Positions 6,595-26,956 of a stretch of 64,000 nt of DNA are shown here, in pieces. This DNA is from Candidatus Yanofskybacteria bacterium RIFCSPHIGHO2_01_FULL_41_26 (lineage in GTDB: Bacteria; Patescibacteriota; Minisyncoccia; 2-02-FULL-40-12; GWA2-44-9), in NCBI GenBank assembly GCA_001794055.1, contig MGJB01000017.1, forward strand, positions 21,339-85,338. Direction: 5' to 3'. Numbering within the stretch: position 1 is the stretch's first letter; each line of letters begins with the position of its first letter. The translations under genes and the position numbers were made by a program. Under the pieces are notes generated by a model. The model was not told where the DNA came from. It did no database searches and was given only the letters and a program-made list of their open reading frames with translations.

Positions 6595-7197
6595 TTATCT
6601 TAACACAGAATGGAGAAAATTTAATGACTTTAATCTAAATCCGGCGTTGTATTCAAAAGCGTCATCCAGCATTGTAAATCCGGGCCGAGTTGCGTCAAAA
6701 GAAGCTGAAGCGGCAATTTCGGGAGAATACCCGAGCAATCCCAGCAAAGCAAACTGTTTTTGTCTTAAAAAAGTTAAGCTCGGCTCAAACCGGTTTAACT
6801 TATCAAACAGACCGGTCATAAAATTCCAAAGTTTTTCATCTTTATCCATTTCGGGAACCATCTTATCAATCACTTCGGAGAAAAAACTCGCAACCGCCAA
6901 AGAAAGAATCGAGCTTTTCAAATCCCGGTATGAATTCTCCGACTGGGCTCCGGCAATTACCGGCAAGGACCGCCCTTGTATAAGATCAAACTCCACAAGG
7001 TTTAAGGTATCTAAATGCATGGCTTGAATAGAACTGTGTTTTAAAATACTTTTAGCAATGGCGGTAAGCTTCCCAAGTTCCTGTGTATAGCAAGTCACGA
7101 ACTGATCGAATTCGTTGGTGTTTTGCTTTTTTATAATTATCGCCTTAATCAGCATTTGATATTTGAAACTTTGATATATTGACAGTTTTGCCGCCAT
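6595..7197 (-). CDS. recO: DNA repair protein RecO-like
   Basis: 200 aa. N-terminal OB-fold-like region and C-terminal helical region resemble short RecO. Confidence 0.5.
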   Translation of the reverse strand: MAAKLSIYQSFKYQMLIKAIIIKKQNTNEFDQFVTCYTQELGKLTAIAKSILKHSSIQAMHLDTLNLVEFDLIQGRSLPVIAGAQSENSYRDLKSSILSLAVASFFSEVIDKMVPEMDKDEKLWNFMTGLFDKLNRFEPSLTFLRQKQFALLGLLGYSPEIAASASFDATRPGFTMLDDAFEYNAGFRLKSLNFLHSVLR

Positions 7198-7559: not shown

Positions 7560-7976
7560 TTACAAATTTGTAAGATAGGTTCTAATAAATTTATCAGTTG
7601 CCATAACCGTTTCTTTTTTTATTTTTGGGTTGCTAGACGCAACCCATTTCGCAAAGTTATACAATTCTGTATTATCAACCCTAATCCACTTATTATTTTT
7701 ATACAAAAAGTAAAACAAAGTAACCATGGCAATTCTTTTGTTGCCGTTTTTAAAAGGATGGTTTTTTATCATCAAATAAAAAAGTACTGCCGCCTTTTCA
7801 ATCAGTCCCTTATATAATTTCTTTCGGCTAAATGTTTGGAATGGCATCGCTAAGCAGCTCTCTAGAATATTCGGATAACGAGAGCCAAAATCGGGAATCG
7901 GCTCATTCCATTCCATAAACTTTTTAGCCAGACGATGGGCCACATATTCTATTTCCAAAATTGATAAAGATTTCAT
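7560..7976 (-). CDS. doc: Doc/Fic family toxin
   Basis: 138 aa. HPFKNGNKRIAM matches the Doc-type Fic motif HxFx(D/N)(A/G)NKR. Confidence 0.75.
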   Translation of the reverse strand: MKSLSILEIEYVAHRLAKKFMEWNEPIPDFGSRYPNILESCLAMPFQTFSRKKLYKGLIEKAAVLFYLMIKNHPFKNGNKRIAMVTLFYFLYKNNKWIRVDNTELYNFAKWVASSNPKIKKETVMATDKFIRTYLTNL

Positions 7977-8224
7977 TCTTGGCCAAGTAACTTTAAGGTT
8001 TCGCCGTATTCCTTAACGGTCCGGTCAATTGCCTCGTCAATCTCGCTCTTTTTTTGGGATGTTAAAAAATTGCTGGATAGGCCAAGCATGTCCTTCTCCG
8101 CAATAATAAAGTTACGGCCGACTTTTTTGGCTTTAATCTGGCCGCTTTTTATTTTCTTGAATACGGCCACTCGACTTATCCCCAGCATCTTGGCCACTTC
8201 GCTTGTTGAAAGATATTTATTCAT
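7973..8224 (-). CDS. HTH DNA-binding protein, likely antitoxin partner of Doc
   Basis: 83 aa. LSTSEVAKMLGISRVAVFKKIKSGQI is a helix-turn-helix. Its stop overlaps the Doc gene start by 4 nt. Confidence 0.6.
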   Translation of the reverse strand: MNKYLSTSEVAKMLGISRVAVFKKIKSGQIKAKKVGRNFIIAEKDMLGLSSNFLTSQKKSEIDEAIDRTVKEYGETLKLLGQE

Positions 8225-8274: not shown

Positions 8275-8874
8275 TTATTCCGCCATTTTTAATAATTCTT
8301 CCAAAACGACCGAGAGTTCGACAACTCCGTCTTCTTCGGAAATGTGGCCTTTATTTTTCAGAACGATAATCTTCGCGTTTAAATTATTTCTAAACAATTC
8401 CGAGTTAATTAAAGAAACATAGGGGTCATTATCCGAAGCAATCAAGACAAAATTATTTGTATGCTGTTTTGTTTTCTCAAAATCAATTGGTGTGTTTATC
8501 CACTCATCGGCTATTTCTCTAGTATAAGTTTCGTCCCAGACTCCATCAGTTAAATTAAACCATCCGGCTACGAATACTACTCCGCCAACTTTTTGGTCGT
8601 CAGGCAATTGCTCCAAGTACCTCATTATCGCCTGGCAACCGATGCTATGACCAACAAAGTAAGTATTCTCGTCAGTCAACCCTACAACTTCGGACAGCTT
8701 TCTCAACCAAGATTTTATAGTAGGCTTATCTGTGTCGGGCATCTCCGGAATCATTACTTCGAATCCTCTCGTCTCTAATTCGTTCTTAAGCCAAACCAGC
8801 CACTCCTCGTTTGGCCAACCTCCCCAACCGTGAATTATGAGCACTCGTTTTTTCATTTCCTCAGTCCAATCCAA
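8275..8874 (-). CDS. YdeN/RBBP9-family alpha/beta serine hydrolase
   Basis: 199 aa. VGHSIGC nucleophile elbow. Size and layout match the Ser_hydrolase family. Start probably at the internal Met (about 8856), overlapping the ileS stop. Confidence 0.7.
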   Translation of the reverse strand: MDWTEEMKKRVLIIHGWGGWPNEEWLVWLKNELETRGFEVMIPEMPDTDKPTIKSWLRKLSEVVGLTDENTYFVGHSIGCQAIMRYLEQLPDDQKVGGVVFVAGWFNLTDGVWDETYTREIADEWINTPIDFEKTKQHTNNFVLIASDNDPYVSLINSELFRNNLNAKIIVLKNKGHISEEDGVVELSVVLEELLKMAE

Positions 8875-11800
8875 ATTTTACGTTGCGGAGCAAGTTCAAA
8901 TTCTTTCTCAATATCATACGCTTTTTCGTCATGAGGCCCGTTGCGAAATTCTGAAAGCAAGACTTCCTTTTTTATTTCGTCCGACCATTGGCGAATAGCC
9001 TCTGATATTTCTTTGTCATCACTGTGCCATTGGCCAAATATTTCATCATCAACTTTATATTTGGCTTCTTTTCTCATGTCCTGTATTTGTCGCATCAATT
9101 CTCTGGCATAACCCTCATAGACAAGCGTCTGGTCAAGTTCGATATTCAAACAAACCAACTCCTTCTGACTTTTATCATAAACAATTTCTTTTACATTGAG
9201 TTCTTCTTTAACCAAAATCTCCAGATCTTTCGGAAATTCGTTTGAGAGCCCCAGATGTACTGCCCTTAACGGCTGGCGGACTTTGATTTGTTTTTCTTTT
9301 CTTTGGGCTAAACCCAATGTAACAATGTTTTTAATTTCTTCCATCTGCTTCTCCAGTTCTTTGTTTATCTGTTTCTTGTTTACTTGAGGCCAATCGTGAA
9401 GGTGTACGCTTTCAGTCCCCGAGGACCGTCCTCGGTGGAGGCGCATATGGATGTCCTCTGCCATAAAAGGAATGAACGGGGCGATAACTTTGGCAATCTC
9501 CAAAAGCAAAAATCTTAAAAGCCCTAGGGCCTCTTTTCTTTTTCTTGAACGCCTGAGCCACCAGTTAGAAAGGTCCTCCGCAACAAATTTTTCGATCGTT
9601 TTTGCCGCCGAAGTCGGATCGTATTTATCCAAGCCGTCTGATACTTCTCCTAGCAATCTGTTTAATTTTGACAGTATCCACCTATCGAGCAGATTCAGAT
9701 TTTTGCCTTTAGTATCGTGGAAAGAACCGAATTCTCCTTTTCCGTATAATTCATAAAATCTTAAACAATTGTCAAGCGTACTGAAAAATCCTTTCTGTTT
9801 ATCTTCTATTTCTCTAGGGATTACGCTTTTACTTTCACCTATCGTCATTGACGACAAAAAATACCACCTCAACACATCAACGCCGTATTTATCCATAAAT
9901 TCCATGACCGGCACATAATTTCCTTTTGACTTGGACATTTTGGCGCCTTTTTCATCAAGCGTATGCCCAAGCACCATTACATTTTTATATGGCGCACCTT
10001 TTTCAAGCAGAGTTGATATGGCAAGAAGCGTAAAAAACCATCCTCTTGTTTGATCTATCGCTTCAACTATAAAGTCAGCGGGGAATTGCTCTTTGGATAT
10101 TTTTTTATTATCGAAGGGCCAATGCCACTGGGCATAAGGCATAGCGCCGGAATCAAACCAGACATCAATTAAATCAGGCACTTTTTTCATATCTGAACCG
10201 CATTTAGAACACTTGAGAACAACGCTGTCTATATACGGCCGGTGCAAATCCAACTCACCCAATTCGTTGCGCGGAATTTTAGACCAATTAAGGTTTTTAA
10301 TCTCAGCAATGCGCGGATACCATTGTGCCTTCCCTTCTTTATTCAATATCTGATCTCCGGTCAATCCTTCAGCGATTGTGTTCAACAACCAAAGAGGATC
10401 GCCATGGCTCACGATTAAAATATTTTTATTTTTATATTTTGCTTCGAGTTCAAACATAAATTCCGTCATGCGTTTACGAACATCATTTAAACTTTCGGCA
10501 TCGCGCTGGCGTGAATCCATAGTTCGATCTCCTCCGCCACCTGCGATATAACGAGATACCGGCTTACCATCCCAACCAGAAGCAGATCGATACTCATGTA
10601 ATCGTTCGTCAATCACAACTTTTTGATGCAGTATTTTGCCGGCAATTGAGGCTGTTTCGTGAGTTCGAATGAACGGCGAACTAAAAATATAATCAACCCC
10701 CTCCAGTTTTAACAGTTCAATGGACTTCTCAACCATTTTTTCACCTTCGGAGGTAAGGTGGTAAGCATCGTTTTCCTGACGAGTGTTCACGATCGCATCG
10801 CCCCCTTCATTCCGAGTAGAAAAGCCGTGGCGCATAATGTAATATGTATTTTGGGGACTAACTGAAAGTTTCTCGAGTTCTTTAACCGAACCGATCGTAG
10901 TTTTGTTGTCACACCCGCCCGACCGAACACTCTCGGTAGTTCGAACGGGTTGATTGCATTCCCAAATCGGCAATGGAGTCCCCCAATATCTTTCTCTCGA
11001 AAAAGCCCAGTCCTTCCCCTCTTTCAACCACTGGCCAAATCTGCCTTCTTTAATATGTTCGGGAATCCAATTTGTCTTCCGGTTGTTTTCAATAAGTTCT
11101 TTGTTAACCGCCGACATTTTGATGAACCATGATTCTTTGGCGTAATACAGAAGCGGGGTGTCACATCTCCAGCAAAAAGGATAATCATGTTCATAATTGA
11201 AAGTAATAAGTAGTAAGTGGTTAGTAGTAAGGTAGTCGAGAATTAAGTCCTCCGTTTCTTTGGCTTTTACATATTTCCGGTCAAGACCATGGCCAATATT
11301 TATAAATCTGCCCCGTTCATCAACCGTGTGAAATTTGGGAAGTCCTAATTTTGTGCCAAGGTTGTAATCGTCCTCTCCGTACATGACCGCAGTATGAACC
11401 ACACCCGTTCCGTCTTCGGTAGAAACGAAATCGGCATCGTAAATTCTGTATGATTTATCTGATTTAAGTTTTTCGACACTAAACAACGGTTCATATTCTA
11501 GACCAAGAAGATCAGAACCTTTGTAGGTTGTATTTAGTATTTCGTATTTAGTATCTTTGAGAACTCTCCCAACAGCACTTTCGGCTAATATAAAAATTTC
11601 ATCTCCAACTTTTACTGCTGTATAACCAATATCTTTCCCGACAGCCAAGGCAACGTTGCCAGGCAATGTCCACGGAGTTGTCGTCCAAGCAAGTACATAA
11701 AGGTTCGACCTTAAATCTCCAACAAGATTAGACCTTGCAGAATTTTTAACTTTAAATTTAACAAAAACAGATTTATCTGTAACTGTCTTGTATCCCTGGG

Positions 11801-12368
11801 CAACTTCGTGAGATGATAACGGCGTTCCACAGCGTGTGCAGAAAGGCACGACCCGATGAGCCAAATACAATAATTTCCTATCCCAGATCTTTTTTATTAT
11901 CGCCCAGAGCGATTCAATGTATTGGTTTTTGTAAGTAATGTACGGATCATTCATATCGAGCCAGAAGCCCATTTTTTTGGTCATCTGTTCCCATTCGTTC
12001 TTGTATTTCCAAACGCTCTCCTTGGCCTTCTTGTTGAATTTGTCTATCCCATATGTTTCAATATCTTTTTTGTTTTTAAAGCCAAGCTCTTTCTCAACCT
12101 CTATTTCCACCGGCAGGCCGTGAGTATCCCAGCCGGCTTTGCGCAAGACAAAATATCCGCGCATTGTTTTGTAACGGCCAAAAACATCTTTATAGATCCG
12201 AGTTAGAAAGTGTCCGACATGGGGCAGTCCATTGGCGGTCGGCGGACCTTCAAAAAAAACAAAACGCTTCGCTTTTTGACGGTTTTCCAGAGATTTCTTA
12301 AAAATATTATTATCTCTCCAAAAGTCCAGTATCTTCTTTTCTTTATCGACAAAATTAGAATCAGCCAT
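8853..12368 (-). CDS. ileS: isoleucyl-tRNA synthetase with inserted histidine-phosphatase-like domain
   Basis: 1171 aa. PPTANGLPHVGH (HIGH), WTTTPWTLPGN editing domain and KMSKSKGN are present. Residues about 472-715 form an extra domain with RHG, SSPFIRTHETA and VSHGDP motifs. Confidence 0.9.
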   Translation of the reverse strand: MADSNFVDKEKKILDFWRDNNIFKKSLENRQKAKRFVFFEGPPTANGLPHVGHFLTRIYKDVFGRYKTMRGYFVLRKAGWDTHGLPVEIEVEKELGFKNKKDIETYGIDKFNKKAKESVWKYKNEWEQMTKKMGFWLDMNDPYITYKNQYIESLWAIIKKIWDRKLLYLAHRVVPFCTRCGTPLSSHEVAQGYKTVTDKSVFVKFKVKNSARSNLVGDLRSNLYVLAWTTTPWTLPGNVALAVGKDIGYTAVKVGDEIFILAESAVGRVLKDTKYEILNTTYKGSDLLGLEYEPLFSVEKLKSDKSYRIYDADFVSTEDGTGVVHTAVMYGEDDYNLGTKLGLPKFHTVDERGRFINIGHGLDRKYVKAKETEDLILDYLTTNHLLLITFNYEHDYPFCWRCDTPLLYYAKESWFIKMSAVNKELIENNRKTNWIPEHIKEGRFGQWLKEGKDWAFSRERYWGTPLPIWECNQPVRTTESVRSGGCDNKTTIGSVKELEKLSVSPQNTYYIMRHGFSTRNEGGDAIVNTRQENDAYHLTSEGEKMVEKSIELLKLEGVDYIFSSPFIRTHETASIAGKILHQKVVIDERLHEYRSASGWDGKPVSRYIAGGGGDRTMDSRQRDAESLNDVRKRMTEFMFELEAKYKNKNILIVSHGDPLWLLNTIAEGLTGDQILNKEGKAQWYPRIAEIKNLNWSKIPRNELGELDLHRPYIDSVVLKCSKCGSDMKKVPDLIDVWFDSGAMPYAQWHWPFDNKKISKEQFPADFIVEAIDQTRGWFFTLLAISTLLEKGAPYKNVMVLGHTLDEKGAKMSKSKGNYVPVMEFMDKYGVDVLRWYFLSSMTIGESKSVIPREIEDKQKGFFSTLDNCLRFYELYGKGEFGSFHDTKGKNLNLLDRWILSKLNRLLGEVSDGLDKYDPTSAAKTIEKFVAEDLSNWWLRRSRKRKEALGLLRFLLLEIAKVIAPFIPFMAEDIHMRLHRGRSSGTESVHLHDWPQVNKKQINKELEKQMEEIKNIVTLGLAQRKEKQIKVRQPLRAVHLGLSNEFPKDLEILVKEELNVKEIVYDKSQKELVCLNIELDQTLVYEGYARELMRQIQDMRKEAKYKVDDEIFGQWHSDDKEISEAIRQWSDEIKKEVLLSEFRNGPHDEKAYDIEKEFELAPQRKIWIGLRK

Positions 12369-12410
12369 TTTGGTAAATTATCGGATAATTTTTGATGAAA
12401 AGCAATAATT

Positions 12411-12860
12411 ATGATAAGCTGTCAGATAAATATGAAAAAAACTATTTCGTTTTTAATATTAATCTTTATAATAAACCTGATCGGTTTATACAACCAATGG
12501 TATTTGATTTATCCCTGGTTTGACCAAGTTTTACATTTTTCAGGTGGATTTTTAATGGCCATACTTCTCTCGATATATTTAAAAAACCATCTTCTTGAAA
12601 ATGCTAAATTAAAAAACATCCTGATAGTTTTAGGCGCAGTTTCGTTTATAGGAATAACTTGGGAATTCGCTGAATACTTGGCCAGCCAAATCCTTGTTGA
12701 ATCAATTTATAGAAATTTCGGTATAAGAACTTATTTTATAGGCGACTTAAATGATACGATAAATGATCTGCTAATGGACATCCTCGGAGCTGGATTATTT
12801 TTATTTGTCTTACATTTTTTCAGGAATCGAAAGACCCATAAGATTCAAACAAATCCTTAG
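12411..12860 (+). CDS. multi-pass membrane protein (possibly VanZ-like)
   Basis: 149 aa with 4 predicted TM helices. Divergent from ileS. Confidence 0.4.
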   Translation: MISCQINMKKTISFLILIFIINLIGLYNQWYLIYPWFDQVLHFSGGFLMAILLSIYLKNHLLENAKLKNILIVLGAVSFIGITWEFAEYLASQILVESIYRNFGIRTYFIGDLNDTINDLLMDILGAGLFLFVLHFFRNRKTHKIQTNP

Positions 12861-14420
12861 AACCGTGTGCACTCCTTGAGCGAGCAGGAGACGGGCCGAT
12901 TGAAGTTCCGTGTCATTCTCCTGAATTACATGGTGCTTCTCATAGAACTTATGAAAATCTCCGGCGAGATTCAAAGTATACTGACCGAGATTATGAACCT
13001 GATAGTTTTCTGCGACGCCTTCAACAACTTCCGGAAACCTAACAAGATCTTTCAGTAATCGCAGTTCCTCTTTTTCTTTCAATAAATCAAGGTCGTTGGT
13101 CGTTGGTTGTTGGTTGTTGGTTGTTTTAGCAAAAATACTATTCAATCGCGAATGGGCATATTGAATATAGAAAACCGGGTTTTCTTTTGACTGTTTTTTT
13201 GCCAGTTCTATATCGAACTCCATGTGAGTATTCAAATCCCTGGAAAGGAAGAAAAACCTAATGGCATCTTTCCCGATCTCGGACAGCAAGTCGTCCATCA
13301 AAATAAACCGGCCCGTTCTTTTGGACATTTTTTGGATTTCACCGTCTTCTTTGATTGAAACTAATTGATGGAGAAGTATCTCCAGACGGTCGGGATCATA
13401 TCCTAGAGCCGCAACGCCCGTTTTTAATCTGACAACATCTCCATGGTGATCTGCTCCCCAAATATTTATTGTGCTTGTAAATCCCCTTCCAAATTTATTC
13501 TTGGTATAAGCAATGTCGTTCAACAAATAAGTCGTTGAGCCATCACTTTTTACTAAAACAGCTTTTTGCTCATTATTTATTTTTAACCACTTGGCTCCGT
13601 CTTCTTCAATTACAAATCCCTTCGATTCCAATTCGGCAAGAGCCGCTTCAACTTCTCCGCTTTCATGAAGTTTTGATTCAAAAAACCATTCATCAAATTC
13701 AACTCCCATTTTTTTTGAGGAATTTTTGGCTTTATCGATCATGGCATTAATCGCCCACGCCCGAACATGGCCCTCGGGTATCTTCTTATCCAAAAATTCT
13801 TGGGCCATCTCTTTAATATACTCGCCCTGATACATTTCCGAACCAAATTCCACCTTTTCACCTTTCAATTCTTTCATCCTTAACTTCACTGACTCAACAA
13901 GTTTATCCACTTGGTTGCCAACATCATTGATATAATACTCTTTGGTCACTTGATATCCTGTTTTTTCTAAAATATTGCCGAGTGTATCGCCGAATGAAGC
14001 TGCCCGAGCATTGCCGACCGTTAGCGGCCCAGTCGGATTGGCAGAGACGAATTCAAGATTTATCTTGACTCCTTTACCTGGCTCAGAATTACCAAATTTT
14101 TCTCCTCTTTCTACAACCTCAACTAACGAGTTCCTTAAATAATCTTCGCTTAGATAGAAATTAATGAACCCCGGCGGAACAAGCTGGATTTTTCTTAATT
14201 TTTTGCCCAATTCTTTATCGCCTAAAAGTTCTTCCACCAAGTCCTTTCCTGCTTCTATTGGGCTTATTCCTTTTTTCTTTGCCAAAACAAAAGCAAGATT
14301 AGTCGAATAGTCTCCCAACATATCTTCAGAAGGCATCAAAATATCGAACCCTACCCCTGGAATTCTGTCCGAAATTTCTTTTCTTAGCCACTTTTTTATC
14401 ATATCGTTTAAGTTTATCAA
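12810..14420 (-). CDS. argS: arginyl-tRNA synthetase
   Basis: 536 aa. N-terminal Arg_tRNA_synt_N-like region, SANPTGPLTVGNAR class I motif and C-terminal DALR-like domain. Confidence 0.9.
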   Translation of the reverse strand: MINLNDMIKKWLRKEISDRIPGVGFDILMPSEDMLGDYSTNLAFVLAKKKGISPIEAGKDLVEELLGDKELGKKLRKIQLVPPGFINFYLSEDYLRNSLVEVVERGEKFGNSEPGKGVKINLEFVSANPTGPLTVGNARAASFGDTLGNILEKTGYQVTKEYYINDVGNQVDKLVESVKLRMKELKGEKVEFGSEMYQGEYIKEMAQEFLDKKIPEGHVRAWAINAMIDKAKNSSKKMGVEFDEWFFESKLHESGEVEAALAELESKGFVIEEDGAKWLKINNEQKAVLVKSDGSTTYLLNDIAYTKNKFGRGFTSTINIWGADHHGDVVRLKTGVAALGYDPDRLEILLHQLVSIKEDGEIQKMSKRTGRFILMDDLLSEIGKDAIRFFFLSRDLNTHMEFDIELAKKQSKENPVFYIQYAHSRLNSIFAKTTNNQQPTTNDLDLLKEKEELRLLKDLVRFPEVVEGVAENYQVHNLGQYTLNLAGDFHKFYEKHHVIQENDTELQSARLLLAQGVHTVLRICLNLMGLSIPEKM

Positions 14421-19311: not shown

Positions 19312-19333
19312 GCAGGCGGTTTTTGATTTAAAA

Positions 19334-19693
19334 GGTGGAGGTGGTGGAAGTCGAATCCACATCCGAGATTTGATCCGAAGAACTTCTACTTAGATAGTCG
19401 GTTTGGTATTTCACCTGAAGCTAAAAAACCAACAAAATAACTTCGAGCTATTTTTCCGTATTCTCAACAGCAAAACAGGAAAAAGATGAATTGCTGTCCA
19501 GCCTACTATATAACATTCCGTAATCCCCTAGCAGGCATCAAGGCGGAATGGCTTACCTAAATAAATTTAGGCGAAAGCGTAATTAGGTTGCGTTTTTGCA
19601 CCTATTAATTTGGTCGAGGTTTTATAGTGGTTAACGGCCATCCACTCTAAGCGTCCAGTCAGTTCATAAATCTCGTCGAAGCCTTTCACCCCC
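19334..19693 (-). ncRNA. ssrA: tmRNA (ssrA), tag peptide AKTQPNYAFA
   Basis: 5' GGGGGTGAAAGGCTTCGACG pairs with 3' CACCTCCACC, giving a tRNA-Ala-like acceptor with G3:U70. T-arm GGATTCGACTTCC. Internal GCA AAA ACG CAA CCT AAT TAC GCT TTC GCC TAA follows a stop-rich region. Confidence 0.85.
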
Positions 19694-24793: not shown

Positions 24794-26956
24794 ATGTCAA
24801 TAGAACTACTCAAGACCTATAACCCCAAAGAGGTTGAAGACAAAATTTATAAACTCTGGAAAGAGAGCGGATTTTTTAATCCCGATAATCTGCCGAAGCG
24901 ACATCAAAATCCATTTACCATCATTATGCCTCCAACTAATGCCAATGGCTCACTTCATGCCGGCCACGGCTTAGTAATGACAATTGAGGATATTATGATC
25001 CGTTATAAACGCATGAGGGGATACAAAACTCTATGGCTCCCCGGCTTAGATCACGCCGGTTTTGAAACACAAGTTGTATATGAAAAACAACTCGAAAAAG
25101 AAGGGCGTTCTCGTTTCCAAATGGATCCAAAAGAACTATACAAAGAAATTTTGGATTTTACCTTAAACAATAAAAAAAATATAAAAGGTCAAATTCCCAA
25201 GATTGGATCCTCTTGTGATTGGTCAAGAGAAAAATTCACACTTGATGGTGATATTGTAAAAACAGTTTATAAAATATTTGAAAAAATGGCCAAAGATGGC
25301 CTTGTATATCGTGGCAAGAAGGTAATAAATTGGTGCCCCAAACATCAAACCTCCTTATCTGACCTTGAAACTGCCGACACAGAACAGGTTGATAATTTTT
25401 ATTACCTTCAATACGGCCCTTTTGTTATTGCTACCGCTCGTCCGGAAACTAAGTTCGGAGATAAATATGTAGTCATGCATCCAAATGACGAAAGGTATAA
25501 AAAATACAAAAACGGACAGAAGATAAAACTTGAATGGATTAATGGACCAATCACCGCTACGATCATCAAAGACGAAGCAATTGATATGACATTTGGTACC
25601 GGTGTTATGACTATTACACCGTGGCACGATTCAACTGACTTTGAAATTGCAGAACGCCATAATTTGGAAAAAGAACAAATCATAGATTTTCGCGGTAAAT
25701 TGCTTCCAATAGCCGGCGAATTTGTGGGGATATCAATAAAAGAAGCCCGTCCGCTAATTATTGAAAAGCTTAAATCAAAAGGCCTCTTGGTCAAGATTGA
25801 TGAGAATTATAAGCATGTGGTCAAGAAGTGCTACAAATGCGAATCAATAATTGAGCCCCAAATAAAAGATCAGTGGTTCATCAAAATGAAACCCCTAGCC
25901 GAACCGGCTATCAAGACAATAGAGGATGGAGATATTGAATACATTCCGGAACACTACAAAAAAATATCTCTACACTGGCTTAAAAATATTATTGACTGGA
26001 ATGTCTCACGCCAGATTGTATGGGGTATCCCTATCCCGGCTAAAATTTGCATCAAATGCGATGAGGGCATTGTTGATATAGATAATAAAATATCCGTTTG
26101 TCCCAAATGTGGAGGAGATGTAAGACAAGAAACGGATACTTTTGATACATGGTTCTCGTCAGGTCAATGGCCATTCGCAAGTCTTGGTTTTCCAGATTCA
26201 AAAGATTATAAAGAATTCTTCCCCACTGATGTCATGGAGACCGCAGGAGAGATAATATTCTTTTGGGTTGCCCGTATGATTATGTTTAGTTTATATGTCA
26301 CGGGAAAAATTCCCTTTAAAACCGTATACCTTCACGGCCTTGTTTTGGATGCTAAGGGACAAAAAATGAGCAAGAGCAAGGGCAATGTTATAAACCCTCT
26401 CGACCTAACAGAAAAGTATGGCACTGATGCTTTTAGGATTGGATTGGTGGTTGGCAATACACCCGGAACATCGCTTGCATTGGCAGAAGATAAGATAAAA
26501 GGCTACAAACATTTTGGAAACAAACTTTGGAATATTGCCCGATTTGTTCTTATGTCTTTACCCGATGATATGTCCACTGTTTTGAAGTCACCACTAACCC
26601 CAGAGGATCAAAAACTAATTGATGAGCTTAATGTCTCTATGAAGGAAATAACCGATGATATGGATCAATACCGATTCTATCTTGCCGCTGAAAAAATTTA
26701 TCATTACACTTGGCATGCATTCGCAGATAAAATAATTGAGGAATCAAAAGCAAAACTTGCCAGTGAAGATGAGAAAATAAGGACATCTGCCCAACGGATG
26801 CTTATAGAAATTTTAACTACATGCCTAAAAACACTCCATCCATTCATGCCGTTTATTACCGAAGAAATATACTCTAAATTGCCTCTCCATCCGCCTCCGC
26901 CAGAAAGGGCGGATGGCGGAAAAAAACTCCTGATGATAGAAGATTGGCCGGTTTAA
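24794..26956 (+). CDS. valS: valyl-tRNA synthetase (short form lacking C-terminal coiled coil)
   Basis: 720 aa. PPTNANGSLHAGHG (HIGH), GTGVMTITPWHDSTDFE editing motif and KMSKSKGN. Confidence 0.85.
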   Translation: MSIELLKTYNPKEVEDKIYKLWKESGFFNPDNLPKRHQNPFTIIMPPTNANGSLHAGHGLVMTIEDIMIRYKRMRGYKTLWLPGLDHAGFETQVVYEKQLEKEGRSRFQMDPKELYKEILDFTLNNKKNIKGQIPKIGSSCDWSREKFTLDGDIVKTVYKIFEKMAKDGLVYRGKKVINWCPKHQTSLSDLETADTEQVDNFYYLQYGPFVIATARPETKFGDKYVVMHPNDERYKKYKNGQKIKLEWINGPITATIIKDEAIDMTFGTGVMTITPWHDSTDFEIAERHNLEKEQIIDFRGKLLPIAGEFVGISIKEARPLIIEKLKSKGLLVKIDENYKHVVKKCYKCESIIEPQIKDQWFIKMKPLAEPAIKTIEDGDIEYIPEHYKKISLHWLKNIIDWNVSRQIVWGIPIPAKICIKCDEGIVDIDNKISVCPKCGGDVRQETDTFDTWFSSGQWPFASLGFPDSKDYKEFFPTDVMETAGEIIFFWVARMIMFSLYVTGKIPFKTVYLHGLVLDAKGQKMSKSKGNVINPLDLTEKYGTDAFRIGLVVGNTPGTSLALAEDKIKGYKHFGNKLWNIARFVLMSLPDDMSTVLKSPLTPEDQKLIDELNVSMKEITDDMDQYRFYLAAEKIYHYTWHAFADKIIEESKAKLASEDEKIRTSAQRMLIEILTTCLKTLHPFMPFITEEIYSKLPLHPPPPERADGGKKLLMIEDWPV

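Follow-up and report, generated by a model that had tools for sequence, protein, structure and literature searches.

The DNA analysed here, referred to as the window, is a 64,000-nt stretch of contig MGJB01000017.1 (positions 21,339 to 85,338) from Candidatus Yanofskybacteria bacterium RIFCSPHIGHO2_01_FULL_41_26. On its reverse strand, at 8853-12368 including the stop codon, the window carries ileS, one continuous open reading frame (ORF) encoding a 1171-amino-acid (aa) type-2 isoleucyl-tRNA synthetase (IleRS) in which a histidine phosphatase domain is embedded; all features of this gene described below lie on the same strand. A preliminary description, made from the sequence alone, had reported a continuous IleRS ORF that keeps the HIGH motif, the CP1 editing domain and KMSKS, and this was borne out by the ORF itself, by the positions of the motifs and by a match to the ileS model TIGR00392 (857.9 bits against an equivalog cut-off of 621.4). 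P0121, which is annotated as a "hypothetical protein" in a metagenome-assembled genome of Candidatus Yanofskybacteria and is itself present on 12 contigs, has the same sequence (100% identity).

Host synthetase and borders of the insert

The closest relatives of the window protein in the PDB are the Priestia megaterium IleRS2 (8c8v, E=2.1e-246) and, second, the Thermus thermophilus IleRS (1ile, E=1e-231). Its N-terminal part (aa 1-470, 10959-12368) comprises the first half of the Rossmann/HUP fold and the CP1 editing domain, with the HIGH motif in the form PHVGH (aa 49-53, 12210-12224) and a first zinc site made up of CTRC (11829-11840) and CWRC (11163-11174). The Thr-rich and GTG(I/V)VH motifs of CP1 are present as WTTTPWTLPGN (aa 228-238, 11655-11687) and GTGVVHTA (aa 320-327, 11388-11411), and the editing-domain structures 1wk8 and 1ue0 match aa 192-397. 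The C-terminal part (8856-10199) contains the second half of the Rossmann fold, with DVWFDSG (aa 735-741, 10146-10166) and KMSKS (aa 810-814, 9927-9941), and ends in the type-2 organization found by Pfam, i.e., Anticodon_1 (PF08264, aa 895-1036) and DUF5915 (PF19302, aa 997-1150) with no C-terminal treble-clef Zn domain. Residues H53, K810, S812 and K813 are invariant among 60 homologues, and no second ileS was found within the 64-kb window. Judged from its sequence, the host is a complete housekeeping type-2 IleRS, in which all testable features of this group are present.

In the Pfam search the tRNA-synt_1 match to this protein is split in two, and His_Phos_1 (PF00300) matches aa 510-673 (10350-10841; E=5.7e-24, 85.3 bits, gathering cut-off 21.7), in agreement with the histidine phosphatase signature recognized in the preliminary description. 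The embedded domain with its short linkers covers aa 503-699 (10272-10862, ~197 residues), of which aa 506-695 (10284-10853) are equivalent to a whole free-standing protein, and the junctions read ...EKLS/VSPQNTYY and ...IPRNELG/ELDLH. When residues 503-699 were deleted in silico, the remainder aligned uninterrupted to residues 400-598 of 8c8v and 402-600 of 1ile, the sole gap being a 12-residue expansion, PVRTTESVRSGG (aa 474-485, 10914-10949), between the first two knuckle cysteines. Since the host is contiguous after this removal, the phosphatase therefore sits inside the second Cys4 zinc knuckle (C471, C486 ... C720, C723), between IGSxxEL and DxHRPYxD, which is the position that had been proposed for it. 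The first half of the knuckle (10863-10958) begins at C471, the last residue of WGTPLPIWEC (aa 462-471), and continues through C486 to IGSVKELEKL, and the second half (10200-10250) contains DLHRPYID (10227-10250) and C720-x-x-C723 (10200-10211). Where the window protein holds the phosphatase, the solved IleRS structures have a loop of ~25 residues; in the catalytic Rossmann fold this loop is flanked by the WGxPxPxW and DVWFDSG strands. As for the 12-residue expansion, 94% of the relatives have a plain CxxC at this place, and aa 476-483 have a predicted local distance difference test (pLDDT) score below 50 in the full-length model.

The segment flagged in the preliminary description, 10224-10955, corresponds exactly to residues 472-715, and every motif quoted from it could be located in the protein. 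About 240 extra residues had been counted between WGTPLPIWEC and VWFDSG; the insertion itself stood, and its size was corrected to ~210 residues (~197 of phosphatase and linkers plus the 12-residue expansion), because the flagged segment includes native knuckle residues, with CxxC...IGSxxEL on one side and DLHRPYID on the other. By the same alignment to 8c8v and 1ile, the phosphatase motifs do not belong to the native IleRS zinc knuckle.

Active site and family membership of the phosphatase domain

The model of the phosphatase domain has a pLDDT of 93 and shows the alpha/beta/alpha fold of the superfamily, and the insert is thus predicted with confidence to fold as a branch-1 His_Phos domain. 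All elements of the superfamily motif, i.e., the RHG histidine, the second arginine, the acidic donor and the C-terminal histidine, are found in it. R513 and H514 (10827-10832), in IMRHGFS (aa 511-517), are the predicted phosphate-binding arginine and nucleophilic histidine and are 100% conserved in 120 homologues as well as in every copy of the multi-copy proteins described below. A second phosphate-binding arginine would be R568 (10665-10667), in SSPFIRTHETA (aa 563-573), and a second active-site histidine H655 (10404-10406), in VSHGDP (aa 653-658), both 100% conserved in the 120 homologues. E592 (10593-10595), the putative general acid/base, is 99% conserved (E in 119 homologues and D in one), and in the free-standing forms this position is either E or D. 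Four further pocket residues, N507, S564, E625 and R633, are 99-100% conserved in the 120 homologues and in all complete copies of the multi-copy proteins. This pattern points to strong purifying selection on the active-site residues, and the embedded phosphatase is probably active.

The nearest solved structures are the small-molecule phosphatases PspA, GpgP, PhoE and CobC. Membership in specific families was compared with the respective models: the domain reaches 60 bits with NF038349 (cut-off 225), a model for cofactor-dependent phosphoglycerate mutase (the family also of TIGR01258), and carries HGD rather than HGN at H655; it scores 40.7 bits against a cut-off of 162.9 with the model for CobC alpha-ribazole phosphatase (TIGR03162); and it stays below the equivalog thresholds for PspA-type phosphoserine phosphatase (NF045917) and for the phosphohistidine phosphatase SixA (TIGR00249).

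In roughly 70% of the embedded homologues, the cap loop next to the active site (window aa 595-609, 10542-10586) holds a His595/Cys599/(His or Glu)606/Cys609 cluster. The cluster takes the form HCHC in 47 and HCEC in 19 of the 120 homologues, and in these proteins it may represent an extra metal site.

Relatives, insertion sites and gene context

PF00300 was found within the IleRS in all 120 of the best full-length relatives (58-100% identity), which were drawn from NCBI, JGI, ENA and Logan. A survey of one genome per GTDB species, scanned with the peptide VSHGDPLW, yielded 235 confirmed relatives; this number is a lower bound, because only a minority of the family members has the exact motif (35 of 200 free and 45 of 161 embedded forms retrieved). 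Among the source names are Yanofsky-, Nealson-, Azam-, Colwell-, Harrison-, Ryan-, Giovannoni- and Uhrbacteria, Paceibacterota and Minisyncoccia. In the 80 GTDB loci fetched, which are a biased sample, the order IleRS-N, phosphatase, IleRS-C was found in 74, as a single continuous ORF in 69 and broken by single-base frameshifts or N runs in 5. The occurrence of the same insertion across many independent assemblies weighs against a chimera, a possibility that the preliminary description had raised. Together with the structure comparison, the survey also supports the earlier view that a phosphatase inside a class I aminoacyl-tRNA synthetase (aaRS) core is not a standard feature of IleRS.

Genes that appeared to encode an IleRS split at the borders of the insert were rejected as such, as the breaks at L010, L012, L063, L068 and L087 are 1-nt frameshifts or N runs and P0372 is truncated by a contig end. 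Just upstream of P0364 (L094 1-170), an ORF with the phosphatase and IleRS-C, there are in-frame stops, and the contig ends 158 nt away; either a frameshift or a genuine split of the IleRS may account for this.

The closest non-embedded relatives are free proteins of 186-195 aa, which are 33-40% identical to the insert and align end to end with 10287-10853 of the window; the insert therefore corresponds to a whole copy of a member of this free protein family. In five distinct free forms, the phosphatase gene directly follows argS, from which it is separated by 3 to 37 bp. For four of these five (P0044, P0058, P0031 and P0442), it also directly precedes an ileS without an insert (938-965 aa), the two genes being 1-4 bp apart or overlapping by 4 bp, and for the fifth, P0048 (L005), the adjacent ileS (959 aa) is on the opposite strand. 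At five GTDB loci (L065, L081, L083-L085), ileS likewise has the free gene upstream. The gene order with the free form is smpB / ... / argS / phosphatase / ileS / ... / recO; this order is kept in the window except for the separate phosphatase gene, which is missing, with argS (12810-14420, reverse strand; Pfam Arg_tRNA_synt_N, tRNA-synt_1d and DALR_1) as the conserved upstream neighbour (L001-L008, L065, L085 and L101) and recO (6595-7197, reverse strand; Pfam RecO_N and RecO_C) as the conserved downstream member of the block. No remnant of a free phosphatase gene was detected by tblastn in the 441-bp gap between argS and ileS in the window. Overall, 11 of the 12 distinct free-form contexts are linked to an aaRS gene. 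The gene context of P0047, which combines a faint adenylate kinase match with His_Phos, was uninformative. Taken together, sequence and synteny indicate that the insert is a captured neighbouring gene.

A search with the domain profile against 1.84 billion representative proteins gave 508 matches at E<=1e-30. Among the best 150 of these 508, 62 are free and ~79 (some truncated by contig ends) are at site A of IleRS, which is the zinc-knuckle position used in the window; the remainder comprises 3 tandem fragments, 5 proteins with the domain at other IleRS sites and 1 ArgRS. A simple N-terminal read-through fusion to IleRS was found in none of these 150 representatives, though the free gene can lie directly upstream. 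Tandem pairs of phosphatases occupy site A in P0289, P0357, P0367 and P0375. Two further sites in IleRS were identified, site B after DxWFESG, between SGSMPYA and FPADFI.EG.DQTRGWF, and site C just before the anticodon-binding domain. In P0288 and P0377, site A is empty and sites B and C are filled, sites A and C are filled in P0272 and P0335, and sites A and B in P0269; the ileS cut-off was passed by P0288, P0272, P0289, P0269 and P0377. P0288 has six cluster members, one of them on a 1.06-Mb contig, and its gene context (L090 5001-9260; purA, DAHP synthase and SLH-domain proteins) differs, which suggests another lineage; P0289 comes from assemblies of two separate samples. In the model of the window protein, sites B and C fall on the loops of lowest confidence (aa 736-754 and 880-882), and by this model they look like permissive surface loops.

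The phosphatase was also found in two other class Ia synthetases. P0241, a metagenome protein from ENA (1161 aa, truncated at the C-terminus), is a ValRS (411 bits with NF004349 vs 199 for ileS) that carries four diverged copies (33-51% identical), one after the QWF strand and three in tandem after WWGHRIPVWY. In P0254, an ArgRS, the phosphatase forms a C-terminal fusion (L095 4001-6070 and L096 4001-6070); this protein is encoded on two independently assembled contigs of ~70 kb, on which recO directly follows and no ileS is nearby. Copies within one multi-copy protein are 27-51% identical and each complete copy keeps the catalytic set; the multi-copy domains are therefore old and functional rather than duplications introduced by assembly. 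The ValRS of the window (24794-26956, forward strand) is free of the phosphatase insert. It is a compact protein of 720 aa that matches positions 2-696 of the 860-position valS model and seems to be without the usual C-terminal extension.

Free and embedded states intermingle in a neighbour-joining tree built on the IleRS body: L005 (free) and L049 (embedded) group with 88% bootstrap, and a mixed clade of 16 taxa has 100% support. Capture therefore occurred more than once. The corresponding neighbour-joining tree of the phosphatase domain has bootstrap values mostly <50 and gives no count of the capture events. No locus with both a free and an embedded copy was found among the loci compared. 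Considering the sites and hosts described above, the class Ia synthetases of Patescibacteria (IleRS, ValRS and ArgRS) have captured the phosphatase repeatedly, and some of them more than once.

Several other features were observed around ileS in the window. The region between argS and ileS (12369-12860) is AT-rich (GC 0.27-0.30), and relatives hold the free phosphatase gene at that position. An opposite-strand ORF of 149 aa (12411-12860), which overlaps the 3' end of argS by 51 nt, has a weak match to the DUF2238 membrane-protein family (25.4 bits, below the cut-off of 26.4), and in a search for a leader RNA or T-box upstream of ileS nothing reached the Rfam gathering thresholds. Downstream, a Ser_hydrolase (PF06821) gene (8275-8874, reverse strand) starts 22 nt before the ileS stop codon; relatives have a different gene, or none, between ileS and recO. 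A gene for a Fic/Doc-family toxin (7560-7976, reverse strand; motif HPFKNGNKR) has a 4-nt overlap with an upstream HTH_17 gene (7973-8224), and the two (7560-8224) resemble an inserted toxin-antitoxin pair, which separates the ileS cluster from recO. Outside the window, at L093 (2102-2422), a gene for a 106-aa protein with a Trbp111-like tRNA-binding domain (PF01588) shares 4 nt with an embedded-type ileS, at the stop codon of the latter. Elsewhere, the window carries a tmRNA gene (19333-19693, reverse strand; RF00023, 132.8 bits) and ten tRNA genes.

Possible roles and comparison with known systems

The architecture, the origin and the catalytic competence of the nested domain are, taken jointly, very probably as outlined above. 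Its role is less certain, and the reading favoured here, with moderate confidence, is that the nested phosphatase is an independent phosphohydrolase tethered to the synthetase. Histidine phosphatases act through a phospho-histidine intermediate. By analogy with this chemistry, H514 would attack a terminal phosphate to form phospho-histidine, R513, R568 and H655 would hold the phosphate, and E592 would protonate the leaving group and activate water, while the IleRS would perform its normal activation, transfer and editing. That several permissive loops of class Ia synthetases captured the domain time and again suggests selection for physical proximity to these enzymes or for fixed stoichiometry, and a physical tether may have been selected, because gene adjacency already gives co-expression and yet internal insertion recurred. 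The substrate is tentatively proposed to be a small phosphorylated compound from the reaction sphere of the synthetase, for example a nucleotide monoester or terminal phosphoanhydride (AMP, NDP or PPi), because of the structural neighbours of the domain and because His_Phos domains are joined to nucleotide enzymes, as in MutT1 (3fjy and 9cxx).

Several observations weigh against an independent enzyme whose tether matters. The domain misses all NCBIfam equivalog cut-offs, so that no characterized phosphatase family claims it, and the window protein has S/W/R/A at the positions of the H-C-(H/E)-C cluster of the cap loop. The predicted template modelling score of the full-length model is only 0.71. 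Tethering is not obligatory, since free forms exist, and one widespread free member, P0261 (L097-L100 4501-5085; 77 index blocks), has no aaRS gene within 4.5 kb; it sits between secA and cell-wall genes and is the lone exception to aaRS linkage. In ArgRS the fusion is at the C-terminus, which is distant from the catalytic site. The diversity of sites shows that no single geometry is needed, which fits mere co-expression too.

The strongest competitor of a tethered phosphohydrolase, which we regard as possible although less likely, is an ordinary metabolic phosphatase (for sugar phosphates or phosphoserine, or similar to phosphoglycerate mutase) that is mechanistically unconnected with aminoacylation; in streamlined candidate phyla radiation (CPR) genomes it would lie in the argS-ileS operon by chance and would have been fused into abundant and constitutive essential proteins only for co-expression or stability. 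The nearest structural relatives are indeed metabolic enzymes acting on small molecules, insertion sites and hosts vary up to the C-terminus of ArgRS so that a fixed geometry would be unnecessary, the free-standing forms evidently function untethered, and P0261 is encoded away from any aaRS gene. However, adjacency in an operon already provides co-expression, yet insertions recur at at least three sites in IleRS and in ValRS, and a simple N-terminal read-through fusion to IleRS is absent from the 150 representatives. The linkage of nearly all free-form contexts to aaRS genes and the failure of the domain to reach any NCBIfam threshold for a metabolic equivalog also speak against this explanation.

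It is rather improbable that the substrate is a macromolecule, either a 2'/3'- or 5'-terminal phosphate of tRNA, as in end-healing, or the synthetase itself, for example a phosphoserine placed in the KMSKS loop by toxin kinases of the HipA/HipT type. We know of no histidine phosphatase that acts on RNA ends, the domain is structurally nearer to small-molecule phosphatases than to SixA, and the free forms, with the unlinked P0261, show that the enzyme works away from the synthetase too. The charge of the free forms was considered as evidence for RNA binding; a first sample had a pI of 9.5 and a charge of +14, and when 85 free forms were set against neighbouring ORFs as background, the charge was unexceptional (+5.5 per 100 aa, sd 6.2, vs +3.7, sd 4.2, with 30% of the background ORFs above the free-form mean). 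It was kept as weak evidence only, because it is not exceptional compared to the neighbouring ORFs.

A catalytically dead module that modulates IleRS structurally, for example through tRNA binding or oligomerization, is very unlikely given the 99-100% conservation of the five catalytic and the further pocket residues in the 120 homologues and in all complete copies. An assembly chimera, a frameshift artefact or a selfish insertion (an intein or a transposon remnant) is refuted as far as sequence data allow: although ORFs are broken close to the insert at a few GTDB loci and recurrence in several essential genes resembles inteins, those breaks are 1-nt frameshifts or N runs, the same architecture is found in many independent assemblies from four data sources, the borders show neither splice-junction residues (Cys/Ser/Thr, terminal His-Asn) nor bracketing terminal repeats other than short chance repeats, the GC content shows only a small bump (0.46 at the insert vs ~0.40), and the catalytic residues are under strong purifying selection.

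Patescibacteria could have a dedicated synthetase-coupled phosphatase that performs an undescribed step of aminoacylation or tRNA quality control, a proposal that is speculative. Such an enzyme might heal phosphorylated 3' ends of tRNA before charging, might undo the phosphorylation of the KMSKS loop by toxin kinases, so that class Ia synthetases would be self-repairing, or might stand in for a missing housekeeping enzyme by local removal of PPi or nucleotide products; if so, the repeated nesting in IleRS, ValRS and ArgRS would reflect selection for the coupled activity. The aaRSs are among the most conserved and best-studied enzymes, and in bacteria they rarely contain a second catalytic domain within the catalytic fold. 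An apparently active and complete phosphatase nested in IleRS across a large bacterial clade is relevant to the fields of synthetase and CPR biology, and it points to a link in function, in CPR bacteria, between the hydrolysis of phosphate esters and class Ia aminoacylation, for which no description was found in the literature. In addition, the separate, fused, nested and multiplied forms provide a natural series of states for studying the origins of domain insertions. The public sequences are annotated as "hypothetical protein" or "class I tRNA ligase family protein", and a dedicated model would correct the automated annotation of these essential enzymes.

Full-text literature searching returned no description of an architecture that combines an aaRS with a histidine phosphatase, and in a 2026 survey of domain architectures in 96,219 IleRS sequences the words "phosphatase" and "Patescibacteria" are both absent from the main text. 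A precedent for an IleRS with an additional enzyme domain is the NCBIfam family NF040702 (ileS_w_GNAT), in which the domain is of a different type, an N-acetyltransferase; with 320.8 bits (cut-off 1999), the window protein is not a member, and no published description of either the IleRS-GNAT or the IleRS-phosphatase architecture was found.

With the type-2 IleRS of known structure (8C8V and 1ILE), the window protein shares full-length homology, the HIGH and KMSKS motifs, CP1, both Cys4 zinc sites, and the anticodon-binding and DUF5915 domains, but the second zinc knuckle, which holds a loop of ~25 aa in those enzymes, is interrupted here by a phosphatase of ~197 aa. The insert presumably occupies the place taken in bacterial LeuRS by the leucine-specific domain, between the WGxP and DxWFDSG-type strands. 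Such lineage-specific insertions of class Ia synthetases are small non-enzymatic modules that tune aminoacylation, whereas the insertion in the window is a complete second enzyme. Compared to PspA (4IJ5), glucosyl-3-phosphoglycerate phosphatase (6S2Q), PhoE (1H2E) and CobC (6E4B), to which identity is only 19-22%, the family found in the window has signatures of its own (N-x-Y-[YF]-x-x-RHG and SHGDPLWLL) and is genetically tied to, or nested in, class Ia synthetases. Finally, the mycobacterial RNase H/acid phosphatase (NF005567) and the Nudix-His_Phos protein MutT1 (3FJY and 9CXX) are end-to-end fusions, whereas the phosphatase domain in the window is nested in the catalytic fold of its partner, and this partner is an aminoacyl-tRNA synthetase.

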